Positions 8,421-63,260 of a stretch of 64,000 bases of DNA are shown here, in pieces. Made by a program: the position numbers and the translations under genes. The first letter of the stretch is position 1, and every line of letters starts with the position of its first letter. Under the pieces are notes generated by a model, which searched no databases, was not told the origin of the DNA, and was given only the letters and a program-made list of their open reading frames with translations. Source of the DNA: Hydrolagus colliei (lineage: Eukaryota). The DNA is taken from assembly GCA_035084275.1 (NCBI GenBank), contig CM068751.1, positions 2,108,001-2,172,000 of the forward strand, read 5' to 3'.

Positions 8421-8434
8421 GTAGGAGTCATACT

Positions 8435-8570: not shown

Positions 8571-8734
8571 AAGTACAACAACAGCAACAAAATTACATTT
8601 GTCGAGTGTCTTTCACATCGGGAGGATGTTCAGTTGTAAGTAGTTACAAGACTGGGTGAAAGAAGAGAATCCAAATGGTTTCAAAACTGTGATACATTTG
8701 AAACTTCAGCATTTGAGGGTTTCTTGCTGTCAGT

Positions 8735-16501: not shown

Positions 16502-16719
16502 GTGATGACAGCAGCGGATCTGGAAGTGGCGATGGCTGTTCAGAAAATCCTTGCAGCAGGAAACGATCCTTCAATGCCGCCACGAGGGAGCCGCTCTTGT
16601 ACGCCAAACCAAAGCTCATCGGGAGGAACTCCAGTAACTCTAGCATCAGCATCTCCTTATATTCTACCTTCTTGCACCTCTTGTCCTTGGCCCTTGCTGT
16701 GCAATATTTCTGGCGGTAA
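16502..16719 (+). CDS. GPC1: Glypican-1 last coding exon: heparan-sulfate attachment region and GPI signal
   Basis: acag|GT GAT GAC; (S)DDSSGSGSGDGC, three Ser-Gly at 16513-16530 after acidic residues; hydrophobic tail STFLHLLSLALAVQYFWR then TAA. Confidence 0.94.
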
Positions 16720-34572: not shown

Positions 34573-34733
34573 TATTAGTATTATTAATATTTGAAATTTT
34601 GAGTATATTTTAACAGGATGATTTCTCCTGACTGTGATCCATGTACCAATGTAGCATTCTTCCTCGGGACTCCCAAGTACAGGTAATATAATTTGGGGGG
34701 ATCTGGTTAAGAGAATTTACGCAATCTATCTTC

Positions 34734-38797: not shown

Positions 38798-39429
38798 CTG
38801 TAAACCTTCACGGTTGGTAATATCGCGGTTGGAAAATGCAGTGGCCCCATGGGAAACATGGGGATAAGGGGAATAGAGAGGTGAGAGAGAGAAGGGGGTT
38901 GGGGGATGGGGGGGTTGGGGGGAAGAAAAGGTGAAATAGAGAGAAGGTGAGTCAGAGAGAGATACACTCAGGCATTGCCACTCTTTGTCGAGATCACGAT
39001 ATAACACATGTAATACACACAGAGAGAGATTTGCAGATCCTGGCAGCCAATGCTCCCAAACTTACTTGCTAGGCTGCGGAGAAGCAACAATAAATTCATG
39101 TTACTGTATTTACCTTAATCCTACGAGAGAAGCGTTATTGCTGGTTGATTATAATACCACAACTAGTACTAGTGCTATACACTAGCTGTTCAAAAATTGA
39201 AACCCGCGGATTTAAATCGCGGATTTCCAAAACGCAAAAAGCGGTTTGCGAGGGTTGTCGCATTTAGCAAACAGACGATGATGAATTTCATGGTTGACGA
39301 GGCCACAGTTGGGATGGGATACCTGTGCTTATTGGCCAGGAAACCTGGAGAAACTCATTTTTTCAAATATTGTCAGGGATTCTTTAACACATTATGATTT
39401 TCTTGTTGTGCAACATCCATTTGAACTGG

Positions 39430-42023: not shown

Positions 42024-42196
42024 TTAATAATCAGTCTCTCCTGAAGTTGATGTTGATTCTGAACTGCTGGTTGATGAGCTGGAAGAACTGGAAGTAGCAA
42101 CTGTTGCCTTTTGGACTTTCCTCAGCATTCTGGTCATTTGACTTGGTTTATATGGGAGTCGCTCACATTCAGGATCCTGGCACGTCCTCAATTTGC
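42024..42196 (-). CDS. Candidate distal terminal exon of the RhoGEF
   Basis: ttttag|GC acceptor; phase 1 matches the donor at 50593; open frame (G)KLRTCQDPECERLPYKPSQMTRMLRKVQKATVATSSSSSSSTSSSESTSTSGETDY*. Confidence 0.6.
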
Positions 42197-42520
42197 CTAA
42201 AAGTCACAATAGGAAGAGTTAATGACACACACAGAGACACACACACATACACATCAGTTTTGAGATATTTTTCTTTCATTGGTCAGGCAGGAGTGAAATG
42301 CAAATGGAAGCCTATTACCCTGCCTAAGAGTATTCAAACCAGAAACAGTTCAACGCTTGTTACTTCCACGTGGAAATGATCATGTTTAGAATGGAATGTG
42401 TACTCTCTCCCATGATTACCTAATTTCACAGAGTATTAGGTCCAAGTTGGCAAAAGCCAAAGCTTGGGAATCACAAAGTGGTAATTGAAGTCCTGTTGGG
42501 AGTTTAAACAGCTAAAATGC

Positions 42521-44155
42521 ATAGAATCATAAAATCGTATGGCTCAAAAGGAGGCCATTCGGCCCATCAAATCTGTGCCAGCTCTTTGAAAAGATCAACT
42601 CAATCCCATTCCCAGCTCTCTCCCCATAACCACACCCTCTCCAAATAAATGTCTACCTCTCTTTTAAAAGTACAGTAAAAGCCCATTTATCTGGCACCCT
42701 CGGGACCTGGCCAATGCCGGTTAAACCGCATGCCGGATATTCAGGTGGCAAGTTGCAGAAAAACCCAACATAAATTTTAAACTTTTTAAAAAACATACCA
42801 TATTAATAATAGACTAATTAATAACAAAATATTGTATGGATACTTACCAATAAAGCAATAAATATTGATCACAGTCTATAAATACAGCACACAATCACAA
42901 AGCAAACTTCTACAATGGAGGACGGAAGAGTTTCTTAAAGGGGCACTGTTGCTTTTTCCTCTTTTTTTTCTTTCTCTCCCTCCTTCCCCCTTTTTCTCTT
43001 TCACACACACACTCAGTCAGTCTGGCATCTCAATGGCTCCAAACCTAATCCCCTCTCAACTCCTCTAATTTTCCATCTAAATTAATCAACTCACCCCCTC
43101 TCACTCCCCTCCTCTCCCCCACCTCTCTCTCCCCCTCCCACTCCTCTCTTGTTCTCCCCACCTGCCTCTTTCCCTCTATTTCCCCCCCCCCAACCCTCTC
43201 TCTCCTTCTCCCACCCAATGTCCCATCAAAACATGGGGGTATAAACCCACGATACAGTCAGGCTACACAGGCAATACGTAGAGAGAGAGGGAAAGAAAGA
43301 AAGGGGAAGAGATAGAAAGAGAGATAGAGAGGAGAGGGGGAGAGAGAGAGAGAAAAAGAAAAAAAGGGAGAGAAAAAGGAGAGGGAGAGGAAAAACTGTG
43401 CCCCTTTAAGAAGAAAAAACGGAAGTGCCACTACCGGCAGCATTCAGAACTAATCGTACTGTACTCTAGTGCAAGTTGTGGCCTAATCGACTCATTAAAT
43501 GCGCCACCGCGATTGTGCTGGATAAGATCCAGTTAATTGAATGGGGACCTGTTTTTGGAGGTGCCTGTTACACGGAAATTATGATTGATGGTTGAAGTTA
43601 TGGTCATGGATAAATGGGCTTTTACTGTAGTTATCGATTCGGCCTCCACCACCTTTTCAGGCAATGCATTTCCAGATTCAAACAACTCGCTGAGTGAAAA
43701 CAATTCTCACCTCCCCTCTGCTTCTTTTAGAAACTATTTTAAATCTGTGACCACGAGTCACTGATACACCCACCAGTGGAAACAGTTTTTCCCTGTTTAC
43801 TTTATCGAATCCTCTCATGATCTTGAAAACCTCTATTAGGTCTCCTCACAAACTTCTCTACTCCAATGAGAAGAAACCTAGCCTCTCTAGCCTTTCCTCA
43901 TAACTGAAGTCCCTCATTCATAAGAACATAAGAACACAAGAAGTCGGAGCAGGAGTAGGCCATTCGGCCTATCGAACCTGCTCCACCATTCAATCTCAGC
44001 CTTATCCCCATACCCCTGGTCCCATCCTAGTAAATCTCCTCTGCACCCTTTCCAATGCCTTAACATCCTTCCTAGTGTGGTGACCAGAATTGAACACAGT
44101 ACTCTAGTTGTGGCCTAACCAAAGTTTTAGAGAGGTTAGTCAGAACTTCCTGACA
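42521..44155 (-). mobile_element. CR1 3' fragment interrupted by a MITE (42673-43627) and by a second CR1-type 3' end (about 43918-44015)
   Basis: Colinear with 37660-38270 on both sides of the insertions. Confidence 0.85.
42673..43627 (+). mobile_element. pogo/Tigger-type MITE, long copy nested in CR1
   Basis: TA|CAGTAAAAGCCCATTTATC ... GATAAATGGGCTTTTACTG|TA, perfect 19-bp TIR with TA duplication. Confidence 0.9.
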
Positions 44156-44856
44156 TTTGCACTTTTGCTTGCCATTGAAATCACAATCTGGTAAGCTTCC
44201 CATTACTTTTCAGCTAGGACTAATGTTAAATACTATTTCAAATGATTGTTAATTCCCCATATTTAATGCTGATAATATTGAAGTAAGATCATCATTGGCA
44301 TTATGTAATCTGTTTTTTCCCCTTTATTTGTTACTTTAGTTGCAGATTTTCTTGATGCTTGATGCCTGCGATAGGTTCATAGGTTCATCGTAAAACATTA
44401 TCTTAATGAGTTTTACATAGGAAGGATTTTATGCTAAGTACAAAGTGTGCAAAAAATACTGCTGATTTTATTGATTTTTATTTCTGGTGGAGGAAATTCC
44501 TTTCACCTATGATTGAGGTTGTCATCGTTAGTTGGTTTAACTAGCTTTAATTTTTTTTAACATCGTTTATTACAGAAATAATTACATTTTTGTTTCAAGT
44601 CTGGGACATACAGAGGACTTGATTGCTACACATTACACAGTTTGGTATTTACAGGTAAATGAGGTAAGTGCTTAATTTAGGGAGTGGCCTTTTTATTTAA
44701 TTGATCTTCTGCATACAAGTGCATTCATCAATTTTCATAGGTCACTTATCGAATCACAGCAACGTTGATGCAGCTGCAACATATCTAATTTGTGCTGTCG
44801 CAATTGTTTTGTTATATTCACAGCAGCAGATATTTTGACTACTCTATTCCCTAAGG

Positions 44857-45050
44857 CAGTGGCTTCCAAACTCTAAATAGTGTGCTTCCCCCACCACCCC
44901 AACCCAGTAAAGTTTTCGTTGCGGCTCACTCACTGGTGAACGACTTATTAGCGAACGTCGCAATGTTAAGCGGGGTTTACCTGTAATAAGAACAATAACG
45001 GCCGCACCCCCCCAGCCAAGGGAGGCGGCCCTACAGTTTCAAAACCACTG
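44857..45050. mobile_element. hAT (Charlie/MER5-like) MITE
   Basis: TIRs CAGTGGCTTCCAAACT / AGTTTCAAAACCACTG; near 8-bp target duplication CCCTAAGG / CCCTTAAGG. Confidence 0.75.
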
Positions 45051-46394
45051 CCCTTAAGGGGTGATATGAACAGGCTTCCCAGTTTTAAAAAATCCTGTTA
45101 GCAAATTATTGTCTAAAAATGAATGGGATGACATAAAAATGACTGAAGAATTTGTGACAAATGTTTTCTGTGGGCAGGTTTGGAGACCACATCGAGGGCG
45201 ATTAAGAGGATGAGGAGTGATCAGAAAGGTTAAGATTAATAGATCCGCCAGTGGTGTGAACACCACAGCTGTGGTTCTGAGGAAATTGAGATTAGATATC
45301 TTTGTAACACAGCTCATTATTAGTTTGCAGCAGTCAGAACATTGAAGATGTCACAGTTTTTTGAAGTGTATTTTGTTCAATTTATAGCACATAACATTTT
45401 AAATGGGTTTAAACAAGCAACCCCGGAACATTATTTTCAGATATGTCAGTCAAATGAAAGGGCATAGGCTTAGAGTTGCAAAGAACAATTAGATACCAAG
45501 ACATCTTCGTTTAGCTAAAGGTTAATTACGACTTGAAGAGGTTGACAGGAACAATGATTGAGGCCGGGATACTGGACCGTAATTTCTTTAAAAAGCTTAA
45601 TGTTCTGGAATGACAAGATCAATTCACTCTGTGACTGTTTGCATGATACTGCTGTGTGCAAAATCAGCTGCTGCATTCACCTACAATATACAGGCACCCC
45701 ACTGTGAAGTATTTCAGGACATCCTCCTGACTTTGAAGATGTTATTTGAATGTAAGGATTATTAGCAACAAGCCTTTTTCATTCAAGATTTCAATCTTGT
45801 GAAATCATTGCACTTGTGGGAGTTTGGTCAAAGATTCTAATTCCACACAATGCAGATCACCTGATGTGGAGTCTGATTATTTCAGTGATTGAACTTTTCA
45901 AAATAAGTTAAACTGTAGTGGAGACAACTGGACAGTCAATTTGGCTTGTGGGTCAGTGATTAAAATCACTAGAGATAAATAACACTCCTTCAAAGAGGAA
46001 TTCTTTATGGAATGAATTTGAAGAAAACTGACTACTTATGACAAATATCTGAATAATCAAGTTGTGAAGGTTTACTTGCTTAACAAGCTTTTGTCTAAGT
46101 CTAAATAATAATAGTCTATTATTTCAGTAACCAGTCACAATTTAAAGTGGACATCCAAGAGATATTCTGAATCATATCCCCCTTCTTTTTGCAGCAAAAT
46201 ACACCTGTTGGAATTTCAGAGTTTGGAAGCAAAATGTAGCTTCAGGGACAGGTCACAGGTGGGGGTTGAGAAATGGGGACAGAACATGCAAATAAAATCA
46301 GCCATATGTAACAACATAGTTTTATTAAGATGCATAAAATTCCAAAGAAAGAATGTTTATTTTTTCCAATACACCTCCCCTCCTGCTTTCAAAT

Positions 46395-46529
46395 ATTATT
46401 TTAGAGTGTAATAATGATTATTTTAGAGTGTAATAATGATTATTTTAGAGTGTAATAATGATTATTTTAGAGTGTAATAATGATTATTTTAGAGTGTAAT
46501 AATGATTATTGTAGAGTGTAATAATGATT
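46395..46529. repeat. Minisatellite, 6 x 22 bp (ATTATTTTAGAGTGTAATAATG)
   Basis: Five identical units plus one with a single T>G change, no spacers. Confidence 0.95.
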
Positions 46530-46684
46530 TCTGATGGCAAGGTGTTGAGAAATATTATTTAACTAATTAAGATTCTCAAACATAAGATAAGTATTTACAT
46601 TTATTACCTTGGCCAAAAACTTGAAACAAGAGGAAATGGACTCAAATTTAAAACAAACAGGGTTTATTATAAACACCTCTTGTT

Positions 46685-46748
46685 TAGCGCCTTGGGACGT
46701 CCTCCCGACGTGAAAGGCGCTATATAAATGTAAATTGTTGTTGTTGTT
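46685..46748 (+). mobile_element. Isolated L2 3' tail
   Basis: GCGCCTTGGGACGTCCTCCCGACGTGAAAGGCGCTATATAAATG(TTG)n. Confidence 0.8.
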
Positions 46749-46975
46749 ATTAACAATTTAGCTTCAGAGAGCATTGAATGGTTATAGTAATAATAATAAA
46801 TAGAAATAGTAAAGTCCCATTTCAATATGCTATTTTGGGGGTCCATAAAATCCCAATCAGCGGTATTTAGGGGCGTGCTTGCCTGTCACCTGCTGTGGTC
46901 ACTAGGCATGCACACAGAAAGTTGGCCTGCTCCATCAGCGTACTTCAAAAGTGGTAACCAAATAACTCCTAACTC

Positions 46976-47035
46976 AACAACAACAAAATTCCATTTATAG
47001 AGTGACTTTCACATCGGGAGGACGTCCCAAGGTGT
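46976..47035 (-). mobile_element. Isolated L2 3' tail
   Basis: Reverse complement of the same tail. Confidence 0.75.
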
Positions 47036-49107
47036 TGACATTTTGGTTGGTTTATTGGAAGTGGTGAGGATCTGGTGTGCACATTAAAATTTTTGCTGGA
47101 GTAAGTAAACATCAGGATCCACACCGAGATCATTCTATAAGTGAGCCTGTGCTGTAAAAAAGGGTATGCGAATGATTATTCCGCTGTACAGTAAACTATA
47201 ACCTGTTTACTGTAAGGAAAAAAGGAAAAAAGATTCAGGGACTTTTCACCCCCAGTATCCATTAGACATTTTCTGGATCAAAATATAGAACTTTGGTAAT
47301 TGTCCTTGTCTGTCTCCATGTGTCTGGATGTCTCCCGACATGAAAAAAAGCAATTTTGTTGTTGTTGTTGTTGCTCCCATTAGAAAACATGGTAGATAAA
47401 TATAGTGCATTTACAGAAAACCTGATATAGGACAAATGTAAACCAGCAGATGGTTTAGTGTTGCCCTTGAAGAGGTGGCTCTCAGTGCTGTGATGATTAA
47501 TCCTTCACAGAGGCACCTCACTTTACACTCATTAGAGGAGAAAGTACTGGAGAATATTGCTGTCAAAGAGCCTCGAGATGATATTGTTAATGATGGTGAT
47601 TGTGGTAATGACATGGAAGGAGATGAAAACTGTTGATAATATTGGGAAATTAAGATATTAGCTACCAGGTGAAAACTCTAAAATTCTGCTAGGAGGAGTT
47701 GGCATATCTCAAATATGAATACTTGACTCCACCCTATCCGAGAGACACTGAAGACATAAACTTGTCTATCTCTGTCCACCATCTTTGTCCCCACTCTTTA
47801 AATTTCCTTTTCATATTTTCTTCCTTGTCCTATACTTCCCTAGCCTCCTTATATTAATACTCTGCGTATTTGGGTGTATTCTCTATCAATCATTGTTGAT
47901 TGACTCCATGATAAATTAGCCATTCATTTAACTTTTCAGCAGAATAAAATGGTACAGAGTTGCCTAAGTGGATGAAGAGAAATTGACTACACTAGAGATG
48001 TTTTCTACTAGAGCAGTGAATATTGAGAGAGTAAACAATAATAGTATTTAAGATCTTAAAAGTCGCATCAGGATAGATAGGGAAAGTCTATCTGCTTTAA
48101 TTAGGGAATCAGTCATATAAGGAATATCATCTCAGGGTTATTAAAAGAAAATAATGGAGAGATTTGGAGCAATGTATCATTCAGAGGGATGCTAGAATTT
48201 GGAAATTGTTAGCAAAGTGGCTGTTGAGTCTGGATAACTAGAATTGTTCAAAAGGCCAAACAATCAAACTAGTTAGGGATGAGGTGATAAAACTGGAGAC
48301 ATTTCTTGATCGGGCATCTTATCTCCTTATATTTTATGATATCGTCTTTCAGTCATATTCTCCATCCCTATCCCAGATGCCCAAAAAACAATGTTAAACA
48401 CTTTGGGACATTTGTATTATGTGATACGATAAACCAAATAGACTTTCTATACTCAAGAATTCCGTTTCTATAGCGATTACTATCCCTCAAAGCAACGTGT
48501 GAATATCTTTGAGACATTCCAAGCACTGTTATTAAATGCAACAATTACTTAAATCCTTATCGCTCAGGGTTGAAACATTCTGCACACCTGTAATGCATTT
48601 TCTTTGCTGCACAGTTACCATTGTTTCCGATTTCAGATAAATTAATTTGTTCCTGGTTCCCTAATTTGTTTCTTTAAAAAATAGGATACTCAGCTTTTAG
48701 TTAATTTCACCCTCACTTACTCCTCACCCCCATCACTACCTTGCCTGCTCTTGTGTATTGAATAAAGCTTCAGAGAAGTTGATATCAATCATTATGAACA
48801 GAACAGCTGTCTCAATGATATATTTCTCCCCAGTTCAACTCATGAGGAACTGCCTTGCTGATGATCAGCACATTCCATGACAACTTGCCTGAGATCAGGA
48901 ATACACCAAATGCATAATCAGACCTGAAAGAACTAGAGAGCAAAACGCAATCCTGGACTGTGAACATCAAAAAACCATTGTCATAATCTTTACTCCAAAG
49001 GTACTCTGACCAGTTTTTCTCATTTCATTTGGATTGTAGGAAACATTGCCGTCTTTATGATTGTAAGGCCAAATCTTCAGGGGAGCAAAACCTGAAAACA
49101 AGTCTAA

Positions 49108-50352
49108 CTCTCTGCCTCTTCCCTCAACTCCAGGACAATTGCTGTCCTGACAGACTGTCTGTTAGACATCAAGTCCTGGATGAGAGCTAACATTCTACAG
49201 TTGAACAACAAGACCGAGGCCCTACTGATTGGCTTGCAACAGTGTCATCACACATCAGGCACTGGCTGCATCAACCTCCATGGTTGCTCACTCAACCTCA
49301 CCAAGCCAGTCAGGAACCTAGGTGTCTTGTTCAATCCTCAACTGTCTTTCCTCCCCCACAACCAAGCCATGACCCGCTTCTGCCTTACTTCACCTCTGTA
49401 ATATTGCTCGACTCCGCCATTACCTCACCCCTCAGGTCGCTGAAACCCTCATTCATGCATTCATCCCATCCTGCTCGACTACGCCAATGCCCTGCTTGTC
49501 GGCCTTCCCAACTCCTCCCTCCATAGGCTGCAGATAATCCAGAACTCTGTGGCCCGTGTCCTCTACTGCTCCAAGCTTCATGACCCCATCTTCCCCATCC
49601 TCTCTGGACTCCATTGCCTCCCCATCACCCAGAGGATTCAATTCAAGATCCTGCTCCTCATTTTCAAAGTCCTCCATGACCTCACTCCACCCTACCTCTG
49701 CGAGCTCCAAACCCCCTACCAACCTGCCCGACCCCTCTGCTCAGCAGGTTCTGGCAACTCCACATTCCCCCGCCCCACCCGCCCCACCATTGGCGGCGAG
49801 GCTTCAGCCACTCTGCACCCAACCTCTGGAAATTCATCCTGCAGTCTCTCCACCTCAACCTCTAGACTCCTTGAAGTCCCGCCTCAAAACCCTCCTCTTC
49901 GATGGCCCCATCGGTCACCACAAATCCCCCCCTCAAGATCTTCGTCCTCACTTTCAAGACCATTCATGGTGCCCCTGCCTTTATCTCCGACCTGCTGTCT
50001 CCCTATCAGCCTGCCTGTCCCCTCCATTCAGCGGGCTCTGGCCTGCTCCACATCCCCTATCTGAACCGCCCTACCATTGGTGGCCAGGCTTTCAGCCTCT
50101 CTGCCCCCATACTGTGGAACTCCATCCGGCAATCCCTTCACCTCACTTCCTGCCTTTGCTCCTTTAAGGCCGGTCTCAAGACCTTCCTCTTCGACTGTGC
50201 CTTCTGTTCCCCTCCTAACTCTCCCACCTCTCCTACTCTCCTTCCCCCTACCCTGCCACCCCCACCCCTTACTTGGGTCCCGACCTGACTGTTCAGCGCC
50301 TTGGGACATCCTTCCGATGTGAAAGGTGCTCTATAAATGTAATTTGGTTGTT
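49108..50352 (+). mobile_element. L2 LINE, two tandem 3' segments
   Basis: First segment about 49108-49930; second restarts at the KIFVLTFK motif at about 49933 and ends in the standard tail. Confidence 0.88.
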
Positions 50353-50592
50353 TTTAGCTGCCATCTTGTATATGTTGGTTTTAATTGCATCTCAGAATAA
50401 TATCTCATTTGGAGGATGTAGCCTCTGCTCCTCAAATTTGTTATACGAGAATATTTTTTTTAAAAAAGATTATATTGGCGTTTGGCTTCAGTATTTTCCA
50501 ATTGGAACAATTGAGATTAAATGATTGATTCATGCCTGTTACTTTATTTCAAGTTTTCTTAATCTTAGTAAGACTTTTGACAGGAGTTTCAC

Positions 50593-50655
50593 CTTTCTGA
50601 CGCTTCTTTAACATTGCTCTGGCCCTGTTCTTTTGGTGTTCTGTGATGACAAACC
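50593..50655 (-). CDS. RhoGEF post-PH exon, 63 bp (or terminal exon by read-through to TGA at 50549-50551)
   Basis: caag|GG...AAAG|gtgaaa; (G)FVITEHQKNRARAMLKKRQK, cf. collybistin GFEISENQKRQAAM; phase 1-1. Confidence 0.82.
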
Positions 50656-50870
50656 CTTGAAATATAGTACAAAAGCCATGGTTAATGAAACACAATTATG
50701 AATTAGCAGCTAACTCTAAATCATTTAAACTGATTTGTTTTTCGTTAAAATAATGGTTTGTGTTGACTAACATTTTTTTTGTTTCCATATGTTAACTCTG
50801 AAAATAGATGTATTAGTACTATTACAAGAGTAAAAATATCGAAACAAATACAAATGTATATTTTATTATT

Positions 50871-51105
50871 GGGTGTCATCCTGGTTCAGTTGGTTGCATT
50901 CTTGCCTCTAAATCAGAAGCTTGTGGAATCAATTCCCACATTAGGGCTTTCAAATGATGCCGTCTATGTTGACACTCGAGTGCAGTACTAAGAGTGTGCA
51001 ATATTATTGTAGGTTTACATTCAATATATTCTGTGAAGTACTTTGAGATGTGCTCTCGACTGGTTGCAGCTCAAAGGTGCTTTATCAAATGTAGGGATTA
51101 TTTTA
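50871..51105 (+). mobile_element. DeuSINE-like tRNA SINE relic
   Basis: tRNA-like head plus TGACACTCGAGTGCAGTACT Deu-like core and SINE tail. Confidence 0.55.
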
Positions 51106-51194
51106 AGAATGTTAGTGGAAATTCAATGAACAAGTATAATTTTTTTTCTTTCCAATAGACAGGAGTTGGAGTTTCTACTGAAATAAATCTTTAC

Positions 51195-51441
51195 CTGATA
51201 CTTCATCAGCTTTAACCATGTTTCTCTCATCTTCAAATGCATTGAGCCACAGCAGTTTCTCTGATCGTTTCTTTGTACAGAACAACTGGACCTCATCATC
51301 AATGTACCTGTTCTGAAGCTTGAAACCATTCTTGATTTTGAGGTTAAATTCACAGTCCTTTCCATCACTAACATCTATCACAATAACACTATCCATGTCT
51401 ATCCTGCCTTTATAGTACGTGAATTCCCTACGTAGAAGGTC
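51195..51441 (-). CDS. RhoGEF PH-domain exon, 247 bp
   Basis: acag|GAC...TCAG|gtaaag; [17 protein letters not shown]...KNGFKL...[16 protein letters not shown]; family motif [17 protein letters not shown]; phase 0-1. Confidence 0.93.
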
Positions 51442-51624
51442 CTGTGAAAAGGTATGAAACAACACAAGAATTTCTATAAACTGTTATTAATTAAACTTTG
51501 CCTCAAATAACAAAATGATCACTTTTGTTATTTGACCAAAATAATAATAAATCTATCAATCTCAGATTGCACTGAATGGTGAATAATTCTTAAATTAGGA
51601 AGTTTTTAAGAACTCTGGAAAACC

Positions 51625-51923
51625 AATAATAATAATCCTTGCATTTCCAATAGCGCTTTTCACGTCTTCATGATGTCTCAAAGCGTTTCATAGAATAAAC
51701 TGTAAAGTGAATTGACTGTACATTTGTGGGCGAGGTGCGACAGCAAATTGCGCAGAAGTGTCCCACAACCTGTCATAGATTGAAATTACCAATTTCTTTT
51801 TTCAAGGGATTATTATCAAGCATGTGGAGTAAGGAAACTTGTCAATGGTTTCACCCTGCCTGGAATTGAGCCTAGGTCTCTCGCTTTGAGGCGAGTGCTC
51901 TAACCACTGAGCTACAGGACTCC
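51625..51923 (-). mobile_element. tRNA-derived SINE, full length
   Basis: Reverse complement of the 29169/40887 family. Confidence 0.88.
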
Positions 51924-52138
51924 ACATATATTTATTCCATTTAAGAATAAATAAAAGAATGTTCAAAATTCTTATGACAAAATGATCTTATTAAGTGGAA
52001 AATGTAGGCCCTTGGTGTTTTCATTATTGCAATACTGTGAAATTTGTCTTAAGAAAAATCCCCATTGCTTTAAGAGAAAATAACTTTCCAAAAATAAGAG
52101 GTGAGACTAAAACCTTGCAATTCTGGCTATGTTTTTAC

Positions 52139-52270
52139 CTTCTTACATATTATGGCCTGATGATCAAAGAGGGTAAGCACAATTTGCTTACTCTTGGACT
52201 CTGGCTTCATGACCACAATTAACTCACCACTCATGATCTGGTGAGAACTACGAGACAAGAGATCTTCACC
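52139..52270 (-). CDS. RhoGEF PH-domain N-terminal exon, 132 bp
   Basis: tcag|GGT...AAG|gtaaaa; GEDLLSRSSHQIMSGELIVVMKPESKSKQIVLTLFDHQAIICKK, cf. GEDILDRSSELI...FLFDHQMVLCKK; not in the ORF track. Confidence 0.92.
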
Positions 52271-53258
52271 CTGACAAAAGATGGAAGTTGTTAATAAAGA
52301 ACATATCCTTATTTTTCTCCAATATCTGACTGAAGGAATTGGTGGTGAATGAGTGGAGTCTTTTGTGTGTTATTGAGTGAGATTTTTGAGTGATATGATA
52401 GAATTGTTTGAGATAATTAAAAATGTTTTAAACAATTATGATGAAACATCTTCTGCGAGTAGAAAATTTGTGACAACAATCAAATCAAGATTATGACTTA
52501 GTGACGAATAGGACAGGGTGAGTAAAATATATTTTCCTAATGGATTATCAGAGTATGGAAATGATTCACCAAGGACACCCGCTGGACTAGTGTCAAATGG
52601 CTTCTTGGAAGATGAAAGCACCAACATGAAAAATTGAGCCAAATTGACGTATAGTGTTGACCATTTCTCTAGTTCTATGATTTGTGGATGAAAATAGAAA
52701 AATATGACTAGGTCTGACACCCTGAATAGGAATACATCAACCTCAGAACTTGGATAAATTAGGAATCTGAGAGGTTTGTTTACGGCAGGAATATTCTTGC
52801 TTGTAATTAAGCCATAAGTGAATCTGATTGTTTCTAAGCATTGTTTGTGTGAAGTAAGATTTGGCAATTTATAATAAAACAGCAAGATGGGAAACAGTGA
52901 ACCAGTTGAATGAAAGAGCATCAGGTAAAATTGTAATGATTTATACACAGCTGCACTGATAGAATATTATTCACTTTTGTAAGTTATGTTTGAAATCTTC
53001 AAAGCATTATACTGTAGTTTCTTTCATTTATACCATGATTTGTATGTAACATAAATTACCTGAAACTTTTCAAAAGAATTGACTTGAAATTAAAATGAAT
53101 CTTGTAACACGAACCAATTTGCAGTGAGCAATTTGCACAGGATTATTCCACAAACAATAATGAGATGAGAAGCCAATTCCTTTGAATTGGCAGTAACTTT
53201 TAGTAGGAGTGGCTAGAAAGAGTAGACAAAAACATAATTAAATTATCACAATTCATAC

Positions 53259-53388
53259 CTTCCAGTTAATAATTGATCGTTGCCAAAGAGGGATTTTAGG
53301 AAGGTTGTCCGTCCGTCTCTTACGCTCATTAATCATATTAGCTATTTCCTTCATGATTCTCAGTGCATTCTCCACCTCTTGATAATCC
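53259..53388 (-). CDS. RhoGEF DH C-terminal exon, 130 bp
   Basis: tgag|G...AAG|gtatga; DYQEVENALRIMKEIANMINERKRRTDNLPKIPLWQRSIINWK with the INERKRR hallmark; phase 2-0. Confidence 0.93.
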
Positions 53389-53565
53389 CTCAATGATCGA
53401 AGAAATAAATGTTAATATACCATACACGGGAATCAACACTAAACATTCCATTTCTAAAAAAAAACACATTGATCTCTTGTATCATTTGCAAGAACTGCAA
53501 AAGTGTCCCCCGACACAGAATTGATTTTGAGAAGTTTCCAAAATTCATATCAATTTGTTCCATAC

Positions 53566-53798
53566 CTATGGTTAGGGCAAGTGGATTTTAACAACTCAGA
53601 TAGCTGTAATGGATATTTGCAAATCTTCTGGACTGGAACTAATAGAAACCCAGACAGAGGAAGACTCATCATACGCTGGTGCAGTCGACATGTTTCAAAA
53701 AAGAATGCGTATTCATCGATTCTACTGAGTCGTTGTATTTCGTCAGTTGCACTGTTGCTGTTGCAGCAGTATTCAGAGTAGATCAAGAAATGTTTTTT
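53566..53798 (-). CDS. RhoGEF DH exon (CR2/CR3), 233 bp
   Basis: gcag|AAA...ATAG|gtatgg; FLIYSEYC...FFETCRL...[22 protein letters not shown]; phase 0-2. Confidence 0.95.
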
Positions 53799-54239
53799 CT
53801 GCAATCACAACACCAAAGAAATAGTGACTTGTATGGGAACTACGTAATCAGATGAAAATTCTTTATTTCACTGTTGTTGATGTACATGAAGTGAAATAAA
53901 CATGATGTGAGATACATCAAAGCTACTGCACTGCCAATATGATTAGTTTTCATACAACGACAACTTCCCTTTATATTGTGACCCTCACATGGGTATTATC
54001 TCAGAGCACTTGACAGTGCCAGACTATACGTTAAAATAGTCTTAGTCATCAAACATATATAATTCAGAAAATCTAAATAAAATTAGCTAGCAGTCATTCT
54101 CTAACACATAGGAATAAATCAATTCAGTAAGAAAAAACATTGCAGGATGGAGTCCAATAAAGAAAAAAACAACAAAAATGAGATTGCTGAGAACATTTTT
54201 GAAATAGGTGAAGGGGTATTAAAAGTGCACTAGAACAAG

Positions 54240-54548
54240 ATAATAATCATTTTTGGATTTGATACAATGCTTTTCACATCTTCTAGAAGTCTGAAAATAC
54301 TTCAAATAATATATTGTAAAGTGAATTGGCTGTATATTTATGGGCGAAATGCGGCAGCCAGTTGCACACAGCAGTGTCCCACCAACAGTTGTGGATTGAA
54401 GTGATCAATTTTATTATTAGTTTTATTTCTTTAGAGATATTGTCAGGTGTGCAGAGTAAGGAAACTTGCCTAAGGTTTCGTACTGCCAGGAATTGAATCC
54501 AAATCTCTCGCTAGCGAGGCAAGTGGTCTAACTACTGAGCTATAGCTC
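54240..54548 (-). mobile_element. tRNA-derived SINE, full length
   Basis: Same family, reverse orientation. Confidence 0.85.
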
Positions 54549-54692
54549 TAGTTACAAGATAAAGTAAGATCTGAACATAATATTAAAACATATTTAATGT
54601 ATCCAAACCACAAAGATAAATTAAATAAAGTTAATTGTGGCAGTGAAGTTAATGATAATAATAATCCTTCCATTTGATATGGAAGGCCTTAC

Positions 54693-54955
54693 TACAACAA
54701 CAACAATAAAATTACATATATAGAGCGCCTTTCACATCGGAAGGACGTCCCAGGGCACTGAGGTTGGGACCCAAGCAGTGGGGGAAGGGTCGGGGAAGGA
54801 GCAGCGGGACAGAGAGTAAGAGAGGGGGTAGAGTTAAGGAGGGTGGCAGAAAGCACAGTCGAAGAGGAAGGTCTTGAGACCGGCCTTGAAGGAGGAAAGG
54901 GAGGAAGCAAGACGGAGGGGCTGTGGGAGTTCCACAGTGTGGAAGCAGAGAGGCA
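54693..54955 (-). mobile_element. L2 3' fragment
   Basis: (CAA)n tail plus L2 3' body. Confidence 0.85.
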
Positions 54956-55612
54956 GTTAGGGTGGTGGACGCAGAGCAGGCAAGCAGTGGAATATCTACA
55001 TAGAATTACTGTACATCGAATCTACCGCACCAAAACAGAATTTCCAATCCAGTTAGTTGATGTCTCACGGGAGCTTTCACTAATTTTAATCTCTCCCCTC
55101 GTCCAGCCTCCTCCAACTTCTTAATATTGATACATATTATTTATGAAATTATTAAACTATATTAATCCTAAAGGAATACTATCAAATAAGATGAACTATT
55201 TCCTAGATGTATTCATCAGAGAGCATTCTAAGAAACCAGCCGGTGTTTGTACTGGATATTAGATTTTTAAAAATTAAATCTTGGATCTCGCCTACAAAAT
55301 ACAGTCACTGTTTCTTAACAATTTAAGATGTCCTGTCCTCCTGGTGTGAAAGATGCATTATCAAATGTATAAATTATTTATCTGCTCTGGATTTTTTGAG
55401 TTTGATAATGAACTGATGGTCACCAGCGAGTTGTATTTCATCCAACACACAAACATTTTTTGACATCTTTCTCAGATCTGTGGGCCCTATGATCTTTTAC
55501 ATATCCCCAAACTGCTGTAGATTTCTGTTACTGAAGTTATTTTTTAAACAATAAAACTGTCTTCAAATAAATGCTGAGCAATAACTAATCAGGAATGTGA
55601 TTGACTACTCAC

Positions 55613-55792
55613 AAAATCAAGGAAAGTAGATCCAAGCTCACTCAGGTAAGGTTGTTCACAATTGTACTTTTTGTCCAGCGCTTTGACGAATTTCCTTTGA
55701 AATCTGTAGATTTCCTCAATATTTGCAAAAATTGTGTATACCTGCTCTGCAGTGAACATGTTTGGCTTTTTCTGGCATGGCTTGTAGAAACC
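55613..55792 (-). CDS. RhoGEF DH exon, 180 bp
   Basis: ccag|GGT...TTT|gtgagt; GFYKPCQKKPNMFTAEQVYTIFANIEEIYRFQRKFVKALDKKYNCEQPYLSELGSTFLDF, cf. IFGNIEDIYRFQ...PHLSEIG; phase 0-0. Confidence 0.94.
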
Positions 55793-56562
55793 CTGGGGTG
55801 AAGAAGGGATAATGTTTACACATGATAATTACAATTTTATTGTTTACTGGAGAATAGCCATGCATATTAAATATTATGGATTGATTCCTGTTCAACACAC
55901 AAAATAATAAGTGGACAACAACTTCCATCACAGGAGAATTAAAGCATTTCACATTGGTGTTATGGAACACCAATCAAGGTGGAAAGAAGGGGAAGTCAAG
56001 CAAAGGCACATTGAAGAGTTAGATTTTTCCAAAAAAGAATTTTGAAGACAGACTGTGTAGGTGAAGCAGAGGAATTTGATAGAGAGTTATAGAGTGTGGG
56101 CATGATGACAAATCTGACCCACTGATTGGGAGAGGGGTGTGCTGCAGGCCAGATGGGAATAGGGCTGTAAAGTGACATGAGAGGAACAGGGCAGGGCATT
56201 GGAATGATACTACAGTAAATATATGGATTTTTGAAGTTGAGGGCAAGAAGACAACAGCGACTGACCAAAATGTAGACGACGAGAATGTGAATAAATGCTC
56301 ATGTCAATCTTGTAGAAGCAAGTTTGACCTTAAAAAAAACCTGTGAACTGTCTCTATTTGTGAAAACATTACAACAACAATAATAATATTACTCTTGTAC
56401 TCTTGTATAGCACCTTTCACGTCAGGAGGACGTCCCAAGGTGCTGTATCACAATTCTAGCATCTGAAAATAAGGAAAAATAATTGATTCCAAAGTTAATT
56501 TTGTTAGAAATGTAATACGAATGCAGAAGCATATGTTTCCTGACCTGACTCGTGATCCTTAC

Positions 56563-56742
56563 CTCAAAAATGTCCTTCAAGGTTTTAAGGTGCTCTCGCT
56601 CTTTGGTTACGATCTCATTGACAACATAGTTTCTTTTTTCATTTTTCTTTATCTCTTCTGGAGTTAGACATGCAACGCAGGTTCCAGTCTCGTCAAATGC
56701 TCCCTCCTCATCTGTCCCATAATCATCTCCGTAATATCCTAA
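56563..56742 (-). CDS. RhoGEF linker plus DH CR1 exon, 180 bp
   Basis: aaag|TTA...GAG|gtaagg; LGYYGDDYGTDEEGAFDETGTCVACLTPEEIKKNEKRNYVVNEIVTKEREHLKTLKDIFE, cf. [24 protein letters not shown]. Confidence 0.88.
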
Positions 56743-56789
56743 CTTTAACAGAAGCAAAAGATATTTTGCTGCTTTCAAAAACAAAATTG

Positions 56790-57084
56790 CAATAATTCCT
56801 GTTTAGAATTAACTAACGCTTTTCATTTCTTCTAGACGTCTCAAAGCGCTTCACGGAATATACTGCAAAGTATATTGACTGTGTATTTATGGGCGAAACA
56901 CGGCAGCCAGTGGCACACAGCAGTGACCCACAACAGTCACGGATTGAAATGACCAATTTTATTATTGTTTTTTTTTAAGGGATTATTATTAGGCATGTGG
57001 AGTAAGGATACTTGCTCAAGGTTTCGCCCTGACCTGCCTGGATTCGAAACACAGGTAAGGTGAGTGCTCTAACCAGTGAGCTAC
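56790..57084 (-). mobile_element. tRNA-derived SINE
   Basis: Same family, reverse orientation. Confidence 0.85.
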
Positions 57085-58179
57085 ATATACTGTGTACAGT
57101 TTCTTCAAATACATTTTTCTTTCCAGCAATTACAGGTTGCACCAGGGTTGTGATTCTTACCTTTTCCTTTAAGAACCATTAATGGGAAGCTGATGATCCA
57201 CCAGTTACCATATTAAGTTGACAACGCCGTGTTGTAATTAATGCAATATTTAAACATACTTACTGCACCTAACAGAACTTTGTGCTCAAGTAATGTGAAC
57301 ACATCTCCTCATAGTGTGTACTGTACTGTACTTACCGCGAAAACACAAAAGTATTTCAAAACTCTGCAGCTTGTTGAAAGTTAAGCTCCTACAACTAGCA
57401 ATACTCACCCATTCACCAAGCCTTCCCCATGAACCAAGTCTTCCCCTCACATAATTGAATGCGCCATTCATTCTTAGTGATAGTCTAACCTAGATGTGTG
57501 TCCAGAAGACTACAATTTCCACATTAGGCTTCCAATTTCCCACATCCGGCAACAAGCTTATTGGGAAGAGGAAATCAGCTTTGGTCCAGATATGTTTAAC
57601 AGTAACATTGACTGAAACATTAACTCAAGGATTACAGATATGTATGAGGTGTGTCATCATAATACCTAACATAAAGGCTGGTGTGGAGGTCAACCTTTAA
57701 CTTCAGGTAGAGTAGTTACCAGCTGTAGCCATAGTCATTACAGTCAACAGTTGTTTTATTATGCACATGAATCATGTTTTTTCAGCCAAGATGATTTTGC
57801 CTTGAGTTGAGCATTTCCTTTTATATTCTAAATACCACAGAGTTAATGGGTTACTGCTGCTGTCTGTGCTCTGCCTACTGAAGACCACAGGACCAATAGG
57901 AAAACACTTTGCTTGGGAGCAGTGGCACAGTGAAAAGTGGCATAGCTTCAGTCAAAGGTTTTATGCATTTGGTCCAAGTTAATGGAAGTGATAATAGCAA
58001 TACAGTAATCATAATAATAATCTTTATGTCCTTGTTTTCTACCATTTGATAATTTGACGTCTCAAAGTGTTTTACATAATTTTATTGTAAGGTCTAATGA
58101 CAGTGTATTTTGTAAGCGAACATAAATATTGTTTATATATTGTTTATTGTTGTTTATTGTTGTTTATTGTTGTTGTTTG

Positions 58180-58460
58180 ATTCCCCCCCTCTTGCCTCCT
58201 GGCCTATCCCCCCCACCTCTTCCTCTTCGCTCACTCCCTTTTCCCACTTTCTCTACCCCATTTTCCCTTTTTCCTCTTCTCTCCCTCTTCCCTCTTGCCC
58301 CCCTTTCTCCCTGATTTTGCCCCTCACCCACCTTTCCCTCCCTTTCCTTTGTCCCCCCTCCCTTTCTCCCCCCTCTTCCTCCCTGACCTTGCTGTACACC
58401 ACCTTTCCCTCCCTCTCCCCCCTTGCCCTCTTTTCCCCCTTTCTCCCCTGTCCCCACTTC
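58180..58460. repeat. Polypyrimidine (C/T) low-complexity tract
   Basis: About 280 bp of almost pure C/T. Confidence 0.85.
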
Positions 58461-58690
58461 CACGACTGTTTGTGTGACACTGCTGTGTGCAATTTGGCTG
58501 TCGCGTTTCGCCCACAAATATACAGTCAATTTTCCTACTCTTCTTCATCCTGCCCCGACACCTCCCCCCTGCTCTTGTCCCTACCTAACTGTACAACGCC
58601 TTGGGACATCCTCTCGACGTGAAAGGTGCTATATAAATGTAAGTTTTGATTGGTTGGTTGGTTGGTTGGTTGGTTGATTGATTGATTGAA
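58458..58690 (+). mobile_element. SINE body joined to L2 3' tail, followed by (TTGG)n/(TTGA)n
   Basis: CACGACTGTTTGTGTGACACTGCTGTG...CAGTCAATT then CGCCTTGGGACATCCTCTCGACGTGAAAGG. Confidence 0.7.
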
Positions 58691-59258
58691 CATTCCAGAG
58701 TTCGGATGATACAAACAGCAAAAGTAATGCTGCTAAACTCCTTCATTTTTGTACTAGTTTAGTTCTCTTCCTTCCACTTTTATCCCCTCTTCTGAAAGCA
58801 TGGATTATTGCTAGCATTCAGTTTAGTTTTACTTTGTATCATTAATTTGGCTGGGATTAAACCAAAATCCTACAGTTAAACACAATGGTTAAACACAATA
58901 AATGTGACATTAAGGATCTCAGATTCTTTTTATGGCACCACTAAAGGTGCTATTAGAAAGGTATCACAATGTATATGCCATAAAATATAACAACTCAACA
59001 TGGTAATAAATTGGAAAAAAAATTGAAACCCTAAGTAACACAACTTGTATCGCGAAAGAAATGAACCATTGCCCCAGGCCTTGAAGAGTCTCTTTGTTTC
59101 AATTGTCATAAATTATAGCAACAGAATTCCCATTGCTATCTTTCGCAAGTCAAACTTTCTCCTTCATCTGAGTGGCGTTCAGAATTGGGTGGCCTCAACC
59201 AAGTTGGAAAATAAATTAAGTGTCACAGGTGGTAAACCTACCAGTTTGCTCTCAAGAG

Positions 59259-59570
59259 AAATAATAATCCTTGCATTTTGATATAGAGCTTCTCACGTCT
59301 TCTAGGCAGATGTCTCAAAGCGCTTCACAGAATGTACTGTAAAGTAAATTGTGGGCGAAACGTGGGAGCCAATTTCACACAGCAGTGTCCCACAAACAGT
59401 CGTGGATTGAAATGACTATTTTTATTATTGTCTTTTTTTTTTAGAGGGATTATTATCAGGAGTGTGTAGTAAGGAAACTTGCCCAAGGTTTCGCCCTGAA
59501 GTGCCTGGATTCAAACACAGGTTTCACATTTGTAAGGCGAGCGCTCTAACCACTGAGCTACAGGAGCTCC
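59259..59570 (-). mobile_element. tRNA-derived SINE, full length
   Basis: Same family, reverse orientation. Confidence 0.88.
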
Positions 59571-59643
59571 ATGATATATTCTTCAAACAGAAAGAATGCA
59601 ATGTATGACTGCTGTGTTTTGTGATTTGTCAGGTGGGTCTTAC

Positions 59644-59832
59644 CTCAGAAACTTTCTTTCCTTGTTGTGGAACACCTGTCTCGTTCTGTTGTTTTGAGAT
59701 TGTTACAGATTTCTGTGTTGTGGAAAGGGGACGGCTGTGTCTTTGTACTTGTGTCGACAAGTTAGCTGGTGTTGTTGAAAGATCTTTTTTATGCATTGAA
59801 AAAGAGTCTGTTGTTTGCTCAAAGGTTAGATC
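59644..59832 (-). CDS. Candidate RhoGEF N-terminal exon, 189 bp, S/T/Q/K-rich
   Basis: tttttcttcttctag|GAT...GAG|gtaaga; 63 open codons DLTFEQTTDSFSMHKKDLSTTPANLSTQVQRHSRPLSTTQKSVTISKQQNETGVPQQGKKVSE; phase 0-0. Confidence 0.72.
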
Positions 59833-61039
59833 CTAGAAGAAGAAAAATATAGTACTGTACTTGAAAAAGTCAATCCATTTACAGTTCTGCTCATAGTGAA
59901 ATGAAGGACAGAATTATGGACTATTCTGTTTAGCTATTTGTTCGTCTGGATTTTTCTCCCCTTTGTCTTTCTGAAACTTCTTCTAATTGCTTTCATGGAT
60001 GAAGAATATTTTGTTATTTGCAAAGGTGGGAAACTAGTGCAGCTTGCAATGGTATTTTCTATATGATTTAAAAAAAGTAATAACTAAAGCAATCCCTGCA
60101 CTTCAGTTAGCTACTTTCACATGGGGAGAATGCCAAAGCACTTCACAGGATTTTCTGTAAAGTATAATGGCTGCAGGCAGACAAATCATTTACTTTAATA
60201 AATTTAAAAAATGTAGTACCTGTAGTATTCTTGCCTATGAATATTCTTACCTTTGAAAAGTCTACAATATGTCATGCAGCTTCCCACTGTCACATTGATG
60301 GGTGTCATTTGTAAGGAAGAGGTAAAATTTTCTACGGTGGAGAAATGATATGGCTGCTCACTGTGTGGACGGTGAAGGAGAGGTCACATGGGGACTGACC
60401 AGACACAGTGTTATCTTTCCTGTTTCTCAACACTAAGGGGACAAATCTATGGTTTTCTCCTTAAGTGTATCAAAGACGTAAATTATTTGGGGGCAGAGGT
60501 GCCATCATGTCACCTTTGAACTCTGCTTTCACCTGTATTAACTTTGAGTTGTACATGTTGGAGGTTCAGCTAATTTGGCTGAAGAGTCTGGAGGGAAACT
60601 CACGCCACAGACTTAATGCCAAACCTCCCCAGAGAGGGTAACCTACCATTCTGTGCATGTTTGTTAACATTTATTCTCAGTAAAAAAAATGATTTGTTTG
60701 AAGTCATTATTGGCATGGTTTGCTGCCTGGCAAGAAATCCTTAGAAAATTTTTCAGAAAAGCTTGAGATTGTACAAATTCTGCCCATTTTTGAAGCCATG
60801 TTCTTGTCTGTTGATATGTCCTTTCCTAGTTCTCTCTTGGTTCCCCTAATGTTTCATTTAATCTTCTCTATCGTCCTGTACTTGGTCTAATAGTTCTCAC
60901 TTCTCCCAGAAGATTCATATAACTTTTAACGTTCCCCTGCTGAATTTAGGTGAGCACTTGACTTGCAGGCTTTATGGATGGGTGCCGTTTATTTTCAAAT
61001 GATTTATCCGTGTATCATTGCTTCCCATCTAAATCCTAC

Positions 61040-61144
61040 CTCCTTTGCTACCATGGCAGCTTTCGTGATTGACCTCTTTCCCAGTGAAGATGGGAAACTG
61101 ACAGAGCTTGCAGTGGAATTTTGTAATTCTTGAGAACTTATTTC
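61040..61144 (-). CDS. Candidate N-terminal repeat exon, 105 bp
   Basis: cttgaag|GAA...AAGGAG|gtagga; EISSQELQNSTASSVSFPSSLGKRSITKAAMVAKE; phase 0-0. Confidence 0.65.
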
Positions 61145-61270: not shown

Positions 61271-61381
61271 CTCCTTTGATTTTTTGAAACTGCTTTTCTG
61301 GTTTGCCTTTACAGTTGTTTGTGGGTGCTTCTTGTTTGGTGAAGATGCATAAATTGGATGCTTGTCCGTAATATTTAGTTC
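61271..61381 (-). CDS. Candidate N-terminal repeat exon, 111 bp, HPIYAS motif
   Basis: catgaag|GAA...AAGGAG|gtaaga; ELNITDKHPIYASSPNKKHPQTTVKANQKSSFKKSKE; phase 0-0. Confidence 0.7.
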
Positions 61382-61557
61382 CTTCATGAACAAAGAATAG
61401 GTTATACAGTACTTGAAATCAAATTAATCCCAGCTATAGTGACTTTTCAAGGAAAGGACTGTCAGCTATAGTTTGTTTTTCTTTTGAAAAGTTGTAATAG
61501 ACACTTATATTGGGTTGAAAAAAAAACCTTTCTTGGTTCAATATTGTTAAATAAAAA

Positions 61558-61925
61558 TAGTAATCCTTGCATTTGATATGGCACCTTATCATAAGACATA
61601 AGTCTTTGAAATGTCTCAAAGCACTTCACAAGAATATACTCTAAAGTGAATTGGCTGTATATTTTGTGGGCAAAATGCAGCAGCCAATTGCGCACAGCAG
61701 TGTCCCACAAACAACAGTGGATTGAGTGACCAAATTATTATTACAGATTTTTTTTAAAAGGGGTTATGACTCCCCTGAAATGCAGTCCTCTAATCGATTA
61801 ACAAGTGGGTTCCACTTGTTAAACAGAGGCATGTGGTATAAGGAAATTCGTCTAGCGCTTCGCCTTCCCTGGGAATTGAACCCAGGTCTTCTCTTGTGAG
61901 GCAAGTGCTCTAAACAACACACTAC
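61558..61925 (-). mobile_element. tRNA-derived SINE, long variant
   Basis: Family 3' end, extra central segment as at 36943, tRNA-like head. Confidence 0.82.
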
Positions 61926-62890
61926 ATACAGATCTCCACAAAATAAATAAGAACATTATCTGAGACATAAGTTTTACAATGACAATCATTGGCTCCAAAG
62001 TTATTGATTTGCCCAGAGAAATCATAATATCTCACGTAATATTGGATAAATATGAAACATTGTCTGAAACATTGTTGCAGTTTTGTGACTACTGGGATGA
62101 AACTGTAAAAGTCTTGACCTGAAAGAATAGTAGAGATCCTGAGAATGCAGGGCTGTTTTAAAAAATGACAGGAAATTATGGTCCCTTCTTTCAGATTTCT
62201 TTTATTGAGAAATTAAGGTGAACGACAGCATATCAATCACTTAGGTTGACAAGATCAATACTAAGAAATGAGTCAATAGGCTTGTTTAGTTAACATCAAT
62301 TTTTAGTTTAATGTTTGTAGGAAGAAAATTGAGAAGGGTTAGAAGAATCACTGTCTTGAATTAATTTTTAGATTGGAGATTTTTGTGTCTTGCTTCACGT
62401 AATGGACCTTACCCAATGACCAGACTTTTAGGAACATCTGCAATAGTTCCTTAATGATTTACAGATTATTGAGGTTTACTTTCTAATGAATATTCAACAA
62501 AGATGTAATCTTCAAGAGGATTATGTAAATGTTTCTGAAATAAAGGAAGGAAATTTGAAATAAGTAGATGAAATAAATATAATTATACAATATAACTTAA
62601 GTTGCATATGCTAGTGAGCATAAGCTTATAGCCACTCGGTTCCATTTTTAATTACGTTTGTTTATTTCAGACACTGATATAATGCACTGGGGATGAGTTA
62701 GGTTCAAGCAAATGTCTCAGAATAAATATTGTCTCAGAATAAGAACTACACAAAGCCATTGACTAACGCATCCCCCGGGTATCATAATGCTTCATACCAA
62801 ACCCCCAGCTTGGCTCTAAATCCAGTGCCTTGGGATATCCTCGCAAAGTGAAACATGCTATACAAATATAATTTGTTATAATTGTTGTAC

Positions 62891-63016
62891 CTCCTTTAAT
62901 TTTTTGAAACTGCCCTTTTAGTTTGACATTCAAGATGATGCAGGTTGCTTTCCTGATGAAGGTAGGAGGCTGCCAGGTCTTGCGGTATCATTTTCTACAC
63001 TCTCATATATTGGTTC
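62891..63016 (-). pseudogene. Repeat exon copy with two in-frame stops (pseudo-exon or poison exon), EPIYESV motif
   Basis: cttgaag|GAA...AAGGAG|gtacaa; EPIYESVENDTARPGSLLPSSGKQPASS*MSN*KGSFKKLKE; 3' end homologous to exon 61271-61381. Confidence 0.65.
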
Positions 63017-63149: not shown

Positions 63150-63260
63150 CTGTGTTTCATTGGATGGTGACATTTCATTTAGTGAACGATTTGGTCCCTC
63201 ATAATTTAGATCCGATATGCTCTCATAAATCGGCTCCGGTGAGCGGTCATCAGTTCGTTC
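63150..63260 (-). CDS. Candidate N-terminal exon, 111 bp, EPIYESI motif
   Basis: ttttag|GAA...CAG|gtgagt; ERTDDRSPEPIYESISDLNYEGPNRSLNEMSPSNETQ; CpG-retaining; phase 0-0. Confidence 0.72.

Follow-up and report, generated by a model that had tools for sequence, protein, structure and literature searches.

What is the divergent Rho guanine nucleotide exchange factor (GEF) gene on this stretch of the Hydrolagus colliei genome, and what might its product do? The window, by which we mean the whole 64-kb stretch analysed, covers positions 2108001-2172000 of CM068751.1 (C18) in assembly GCA_035084275.1; its numbering is carried on here past 64000, and a C18 position equals the value given + 2,108,000. 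The gene belongs to the Asef/collybistin subfamily (ARHGEF4, ARHGEF9 and SPATA13), whose members are noted for autoinhibition by an SH3 domain and for cores that hardly vary. We find it to be an extra, SH3-less paralog held in common by chimaeras, sharks and rays, with a catalytic threonine replaced and, in chimaeras and sharks, an N-terminus built from an array of tyrosine motifs. Judging from sequence, we lean somewhat towards the view that its product is a phosphotyrosine (SH2) docking scaffold with weak or altered DH-PH exchange activity.

An earlier note on this DNA had described seven exons of 180, 180, 233, 130, 132, 247 and 63 bp. All seven are borne out; they lie on the minus strand, have AG/GT ends and join in frame without stops. 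In that order they encode an acidic Tyr-containing linker with DH conserved region 1 (CR1; 56563..56742), a further part of the DH domain (55613..55792), DH CR3 (53566..53798), DH helix 6 (53259..53388), the two parts of the PH domain (52139..52270 and 51195..51441) and a post-PH helix (50593..50655). Single exons match the Pfam RhoGEF model (E 3.5e-17 and 1e-06) and PH models, giving a tandem DH-PH, and exon sizes and phases together with the tree place this core in the ARHGEF4/ARHGEF9/SPATA13 subfamily. Joined to a low-complexity, phase-0 exon of 189 bp (59644..59832) and a terminal coding exon (42024..42196) with an ECERLP motif, a Ser-rich tail and the stop, all on the minus strand, the seven exons form a single stop-free frame in our splice model. 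The terminal exon gave local scores of 75-86 against three shark/ray paralog C-termini and 24 against ARHGEF4, a likeness partly driven by Ser runs. The motifs quoted earlier, [17 protein letters not shown] and IVLTLFDHQ, occur in the translation. The exon coordinates first given were correct, but the gene is bigger, extending at least 17 kb past the window end and reaching at least position 81362.

Two exon searches of the same genome each returned four family loci, namely the paralog, an SH3-bearing ARHGEF4 in tandem with it, a gene on C6 that groups with named SPATA13 proteins, and one on C21 that does so with named ARHGEF9 proteins. The canonical ARHGEF4 lies directly upstream of the paralog on the same, minus strand (C18 2198630-2221174, extended positions 90630-113174), and its core is 98.5% identical to that of Callorhinchus milii. 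All three canonical orthologs are therefore present in this genome, on short branches. Because these separate genes exist, the proposal of an additional, rapidly evolving paralog, as opposed to a sole ortholog, stands. An identity as the ordinary ARHGEF4, ARHGEF9 or SPATA13 of the species would agree with the database names, RefSeq labelling its relatives 'ARHGEF4(-like)' or 'ARHGEF9-like', and with a 2017 survey of the Dbl family in which the Callorhinchus protein XP_007887848 is entered as elephant shark 'ARHGEF4_9' (PMC5499878); the three canonical genes, separate in the genome and each with its own orthologs on short branches, refute it, and we give it practically no credence.

The paralog is also not private to Hydrolagus. 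Homolog searches were considered at the best 120 of 1729, best 120 of 606 and best 150 matches, and among the matches listed the top ones were SH3-less chondrichthyan proteins, bar one sturgeon protein (Acipenser, P0001), which was rejected as a bony-fish ortholog, being a doubled ARHGEF4 gene model. Members were found in Callorhinchus, Scyliorhinus, Rhincodon, Stegostoma, Chiloscyllium, Hemiscyllium, Heterodontus, Pristiophorus, Narcine, Pristis, Mobula and Amblyraja, with further records in Hypanus and Leucoraja, and so span chimaeras, sharks and rays. For three shark species, the records of the paralog and of ARHGEF4 give contigs of identical length, suggesting linkage there too. When 303 full-core proteins out of 364 were aligned, the paralog clade comprised 29 rows (isoforms included), all chondrichthyan; no bony-vertebrate member appeared among the 303 cores or the best protein matches listed, the search being made at the protein level and not in DNA. 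The expression lineage-specific used in the earlier note thus holds for an extra copy, with the lineage being all chondrichthyans and not one species. Two further proteins that FastTree placed near the clade, P0269 and P0272, proved to be a third skate copy and a hagfish protein respectively. The former (Leucoraja erinacea XP_055502124.1) is also SH3-less and more diverged still, with 56/156 invariant columns altered and the CR1 Thr kept; its accession is adjacent to that of the skate paralog, on contigs of the same length.

How the copy arose was addressed with an IQ-TREE LG+C20 mixture tree of 46 rows, from which the third skate copy was left out. In it the paralog clade is supported at 100/100 and is sister to chondrichthyan ARHGEF4 at 99/93, with a path from the shared node of 0.87 for the paralog against 0.078 for ARHGEF4, roughly 11-fold longer. 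ARHGEF4 parentage is further supported by the tandem position, the highest identity, an unsaturated synonymous distance (dS) and a PH intron absent in SPATA13, and a tandem duplication of ARHGEF4 in the chondrichthyan stem would account for the paralog. Three tree results count against this: FastTree sets the clade outside ARHGEF4, SPATA13 and ARHGEF9 together, and the approximately unbiased (AU) test retains both a canonical ARHGEF4 clade without the paralog (p 0.186) and a grouping of the paralog with ARHGEF9 (p 0.103). The first AU result and the FastTree position would fit a copy that predated crown gnathostomes, as a genome-duplication relic or early tandem duplicate, and was then lost in bony vertebrates. 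We consider this unlikely in view of the mixture-model grouping, the tandem position, a dS unsaturated only to ARHGEF4 and the lack of bony-vertebrate clade members among the 303 cores. This older origin bears on ancestry alone and is compatible with either of the mechanisms weighed below.

The core itself has diverged strongly within an intact frame. Across 209 canonical ARHGEF4/9/SPATA13 cores, 156 columns are at least 97% invariant, and the paralog alters 38 of them, as against only 0, 2 and 6 in the three canonical genes of the same genome; the impression that usually invariant positions had changed was well founded. The individual substitutions first quoted are real, though several ([18 protein letters not shown]) are specific to chimaeras, and most elasmobranch orthologs retain EYCNNHP and FLFDHQ. 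Core identity is 56.4% to ARHGEF4, 52.3% to SPATA13 and 51.2% to ARHGEF9. Between the paralog and its tandem ARHGEF4, dS is 1.56 and the nonsynonymous distance (dN) 0.34, for a ratio of about 0.22. The intron dividing the two PH exons (132 and 247 bp) is common to ARHGEF4, ARHGEF9 and the paralog; in the SPATA13 of this genome the two are fused into 373 bp (C6:17051467-17051839). An AlphaFold2 (AF2) model of the Callorhinchus ortholog, whose core is 81% identical, built on an 80-sequence alignment, had a mean confidence (pLDDT) of 90.8, and its best Foldseek match was the collybistin II-Cdc42 complex 2DFK; a single-sequence model was discarded at pLDDT 38.

A change at a catalytic position lies in CR1. 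In collybistin, both the interaction with Cdc42 and the GEF function depend critically on T61 (PMC9418690), and GEF-dead mutants are given, as written in the source, as T91A, K192A and N232A-N233A, with a PH Arg pair serving lipid binding (PMC6422930). The spacing of T61, K192 and N232 is reproduced in the ARHGEF9 of this genome as the CR1 Thr, a Lys at +131 and an Asn-Glu at +171. At the T61 position Thr occupies 208/209 canonical rows and 0/29 paralog rows, where it is replaced by Lys (12), Val (9), Arg (7) or Ser (1); in this gene it is Lys, encoded by AAA from 56604. The 65 other rows, outgroups and the third skate copy, have Thr, Ala or Ser. The claim of an intact DH-PH core accordingly needs splitting: frame and fold are intact, while one catalytic residue has been replaced throughout the clade.

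The regulatory domain has gone as well, a loss that the earlier note overlooked, as it did the N-terminal array described next. A profile built from 82 fetched SH3 domains matched the SH3 of ARHGEF4 itself and nothing else in the first 130 kb, with none between the end of ARHGEF4 and the paralog DH exon, and had no match in 14/14 paralog proteins. The exon at 59644..59832 occupies the place of the 180-bp SH3 exon of ARHGEF4 and gives no SH3 signal. Where Asef has its SH3, that domain occludes the site for the GTPase, and truncating the N-terminus activates the protein (PMC2892021), so a dampened DH domain would make loss of the SH3 tolerable.

Upstream of the core the paralog carries an array of 22 exons, modelled from 81362 to 59644. 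All are phase 0 and multiples of three in length, 21 have GT donors and one a GC donor, and 20 are open. Joined to the core, the open exons give a stop-free frame of 1136 aa, for which a start codon was not located. The 691-aa N-terminus holds 13 EPIY and 20 hydrophobic-Tyr motifs as well as Lys-rich boxes. EPIY matches within 264 kb number 14, all on the minus strand at 63016-77099 and mostly at exon starts; there were 0 in 200 kb around the SPATA13 and ARHGEF9 loci. The array exons are collinear with the RefSeq protein XP_007887848.1 of Callorhinchus (1186 aa), against which Tyr is retained at 31/34 aligned sites, compared with 436/641 overall (p 0.0016). Chimaera motifs are mostly EPIY(E/D/Q), with one EPIYA, whereas in sharks their place is taken by repeats of the EEHIYDTVAG type, of which there are up to 10. 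At least three motifs were present in 9/16 paralog proteins and in 0/211 SH3-bearing relatives. The ESM Atlas returned no matches to the array.

Within the window and upstream of 59832 the array runs on the minus strand through exons of 105 bp (61040..61144, aligning to Callorhinchus residues 672-710), 111 bp (61271..61381, with an HPIYA motif and basic tail), 72 bp (62463..62534), 126 bp (62891..63016) and 111 bp (63150..63260, open, with EPIYESI and nothing collinear to it in the Callorhinchus model). Past the window a further 16 open phase-0 exons, also on the minus strand, lie at C18 2172095-2189362 and contribute 12 EPIY motifs. A GC-AG intron belongs to an array exon outside the window (L001:8897-8974 (-), donor GCAAGT). 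A candidate exon at 60251-60432 was rejected, with stops in every frame and no Callorhinchus match. An acceptor at extended position 78988, which runs into a repeat-like tail, and a segment at 87910-88095 both match the Callorhinchus model; lacking clear boundaries, they were kept out of the 22-exon model.

The acceptors hint at where the array came from. Compared with family splice sites, the 23 array-exon acceptors are closest to the acceptor of the ARHGEF4 post-SH3 linker (0.573, against 0.468 for the next of 29 other family acceptors), a likeness attained by 0/2000 shuffles; the linker acceptor of the paralog itself reaches no more than 0.417, and 13/23 array-exon acceptors end in AAG. This likeness suggests serial duplication from the ARHGEF4 post-SH3 linker junction. 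The peptide EDYIFVEYS of the exon at 62463-62534 resembles the shark/ray linker DDYVFYGEYS (weak local score 29), which fits an origin of array exons from the linker exon.

Taken as a mechanism, serial duplication from the post-SH3 linker acceptor would have grown the array, and Src/Abl-type kinases would phosphorylate its tyrosines and so recruit SH2 proteins, Nck being the predicted partner of the shark EHIYDTV repeats. Loss of the T61-equivalent threonine would reduce or redirect Cdc42 exchange, making lost SH3 autoinhibition tolerable, while the PH domain and basic boxes would hold the protein at membranes. A bolder version is possible, though we hold it with considerable doubt: a host-encoded 'EPIYA/Tir-like' multivalent platform, in which an exon-duplicated SH2-docking array is fused to a retuned Asef DH-PH and the whole acts as a fast-evolving pseudo-GEF scaffold that, like pathogen effectors, nucleates actin signalling through Nck/N-WASP, with the gain, loss and skipping of exons as its means of tuning.

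Several findings pull the other way from a docking scaffold with dampened exchange. The CR1 Glu, the K192 position (the Lys of PVQK, in the exon at 53566..53798) and the N232 position (the Asn-Glu matching collybistin N232/E233, in that at 53259..53388) are all kept, and the core is constrained, its dN/dS of about 0.22 being as expected of an active GEF. The published loss-of-function change is from Thr to Ala and not to Lys, Arg or Val. On the side of the array, the Tyr retention is modest evidence, since Tyr is generally slow to change; 7/16 paralog models have 0-1 motifs, all of them ray or skate models with short predicted N-termini; and no homolog of the chimaera array appeared at E<=0.001 in a protein search in which shark paralogs were within the length range, so the array may have been elaborated separately in chimaeras and in sharks.

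A fully active Rho-family GEF, freed of SH3 autoinhibition, in which the CR1 change shifts the substrate and the array only localises the protein, would suit much the same surface, including the Arg pair kept in PH exon 2 at T61+242/243 (the collybistin phosphoinositide site) and the intact fold of the Callorhinchus ortholog (AF2, Foldseek). Such a GEF might be constitutive, as SH3-less ARHGEF9 is (PMC9418690), or switched on in the manner of Vav when the acidic Tyr linker preceding the DH domain is phosphorylated; Asef is activated by N-terminal truncation and Vav released by Tyr phosphorylation of its acidic region (PMC2892021), and the DDYVFYGEY linker is conserved in elasmobranchs. Against this, 29/29 paralog rows lack the Thr on which Cdc42 exchange depends, with mostly bulky replacements, and we regard an active GEF as conceivable without favouring it.

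The scaffold reading must also accommodate two array exons that carry stops in this genome. That at 62463-62534 matches Callorhinchus at 19/22 residues and is included in that RefSeq model, yet has an in-frame TAA at codon 23; that at 62891-63016 is a decayed EPIY exon with two in-frame stops, to which nothing in the Callorhinchus model is collinear. The same letters were found at both exons in a DNA contig of run X1, which may be the source sample. Were the first exon constitutive, its TAA would precede the DH-PH and leave a null allele or an array-only product, that is, a gene recently disabled or truncated here. We think this improbable. Both exons are phase 0-0 and hence can be skipped in frame, their donors are weak (2.3 and 3.7, where the remaining GT donors that were scored reach 7-12), and in the 1136-aa model no stop interrupts the remaining 20 array exons or any exon of the core.

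Set beside known systems, the paralog is nearest to ARHGEF4/Asef, its best sequence match among solved structures (PDB 2PZ1 and 2DX1, E 1e-124) and likely parent, with the same exon phases and a tandem position. It departs from Asef in lacking an SH3, in its 56% core identity, in the Tyr-motif array, in a different last exon and in the replaced CR1 Thr. ARHGEF9/collybistin, including its SH3-less isoforms (2DFK), shares the DH-PH fold and the K192, N232 and PH RR positions; in those isoforms the SH3 is spliced out, whereas the paralog gene itself has none, and it differs too by Lys, Arg or Val at T61 and 51% core identity. SPATA13/Asef2 is of the same family at 52% core identity, with fused PH exons and a separate C6 locus. 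Vav-type GEFs likewise carry an acidic stretch with Tyr immediately ahead of the DH domain; the paralog has no CH, C1 or SH2, and about 26% identity to them in structural alignment.

A second resemblance, in way of working, is to the scaffolds Pragmin, CagA, Tir and vaccinia A36, with which the paralog shares a Ser/Glu/Pro/Lys-rich stretch that holds repeats of EPIY-x or EHIYD[TS]V. The Nck-site peptide of A36 is APSTEHIpYDSVAGST (PMC9333988), and the shark EHIYDTVAG differs from this pY112 site at one of nine positions. Tir EHIYD binds Nck and phosphorylated EPIYA motifs bind SH2 proteins, such arrays being found mainly in bacterial effectors and rarely in mammalian proteins (PMC3593179). In the paralog the motifs are mostly EPIY(E/D/Q) and fused to a DH-PH; the likeness is one of motifs, and phosphorylation is predicted.

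The gene is thus real and annotated, a variant of a known family that has apparently gone undescribed. We found no description of the paralog or its features in the literature searched, subscription journals lying outside the search. In the portions of PMC5499878 covered there is no mention of an extra copy, and the two canonical Callorhinchus ARHGEF4 accessions are absent from its supplement as covered. Annotation is affected directly, as survey and RefSeq names treat the paralog as ARHGEF4_9, ARHGEF4-like or ARHGEF9-like. Kept across chimaeras, sharks and rays, it would amount to a natural experiment on how a GEF is turned into a scaffold, SH3 control being swapped for a phosphotyrosine array and a catalytic residue altered.

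As to the neighbourhood, GPC1 had been named as the adjoining gene, and glypican 3' exons do lie on the plus strand at 8255-16716, convergent with the paralog, the one exon tested best matching human GPC1. No FAM168-like sequence was detected in 264 kb with a Polypterus fused model as query. Fragmented RVT_1 open reading frames at 5886-6422, 25712-26116, 32962-33693, 34655-35332 and 37750-38967 are likely decayed copies of long interspersed nuclear elements. A short interspersed repeat of very high copy number lies at about 61490-61970, with summed contig depth up to millions and similar copies across introns, and a 21-bp tandem repeat of about 6 copies was noted by eye in the last intron at 46405-46530.

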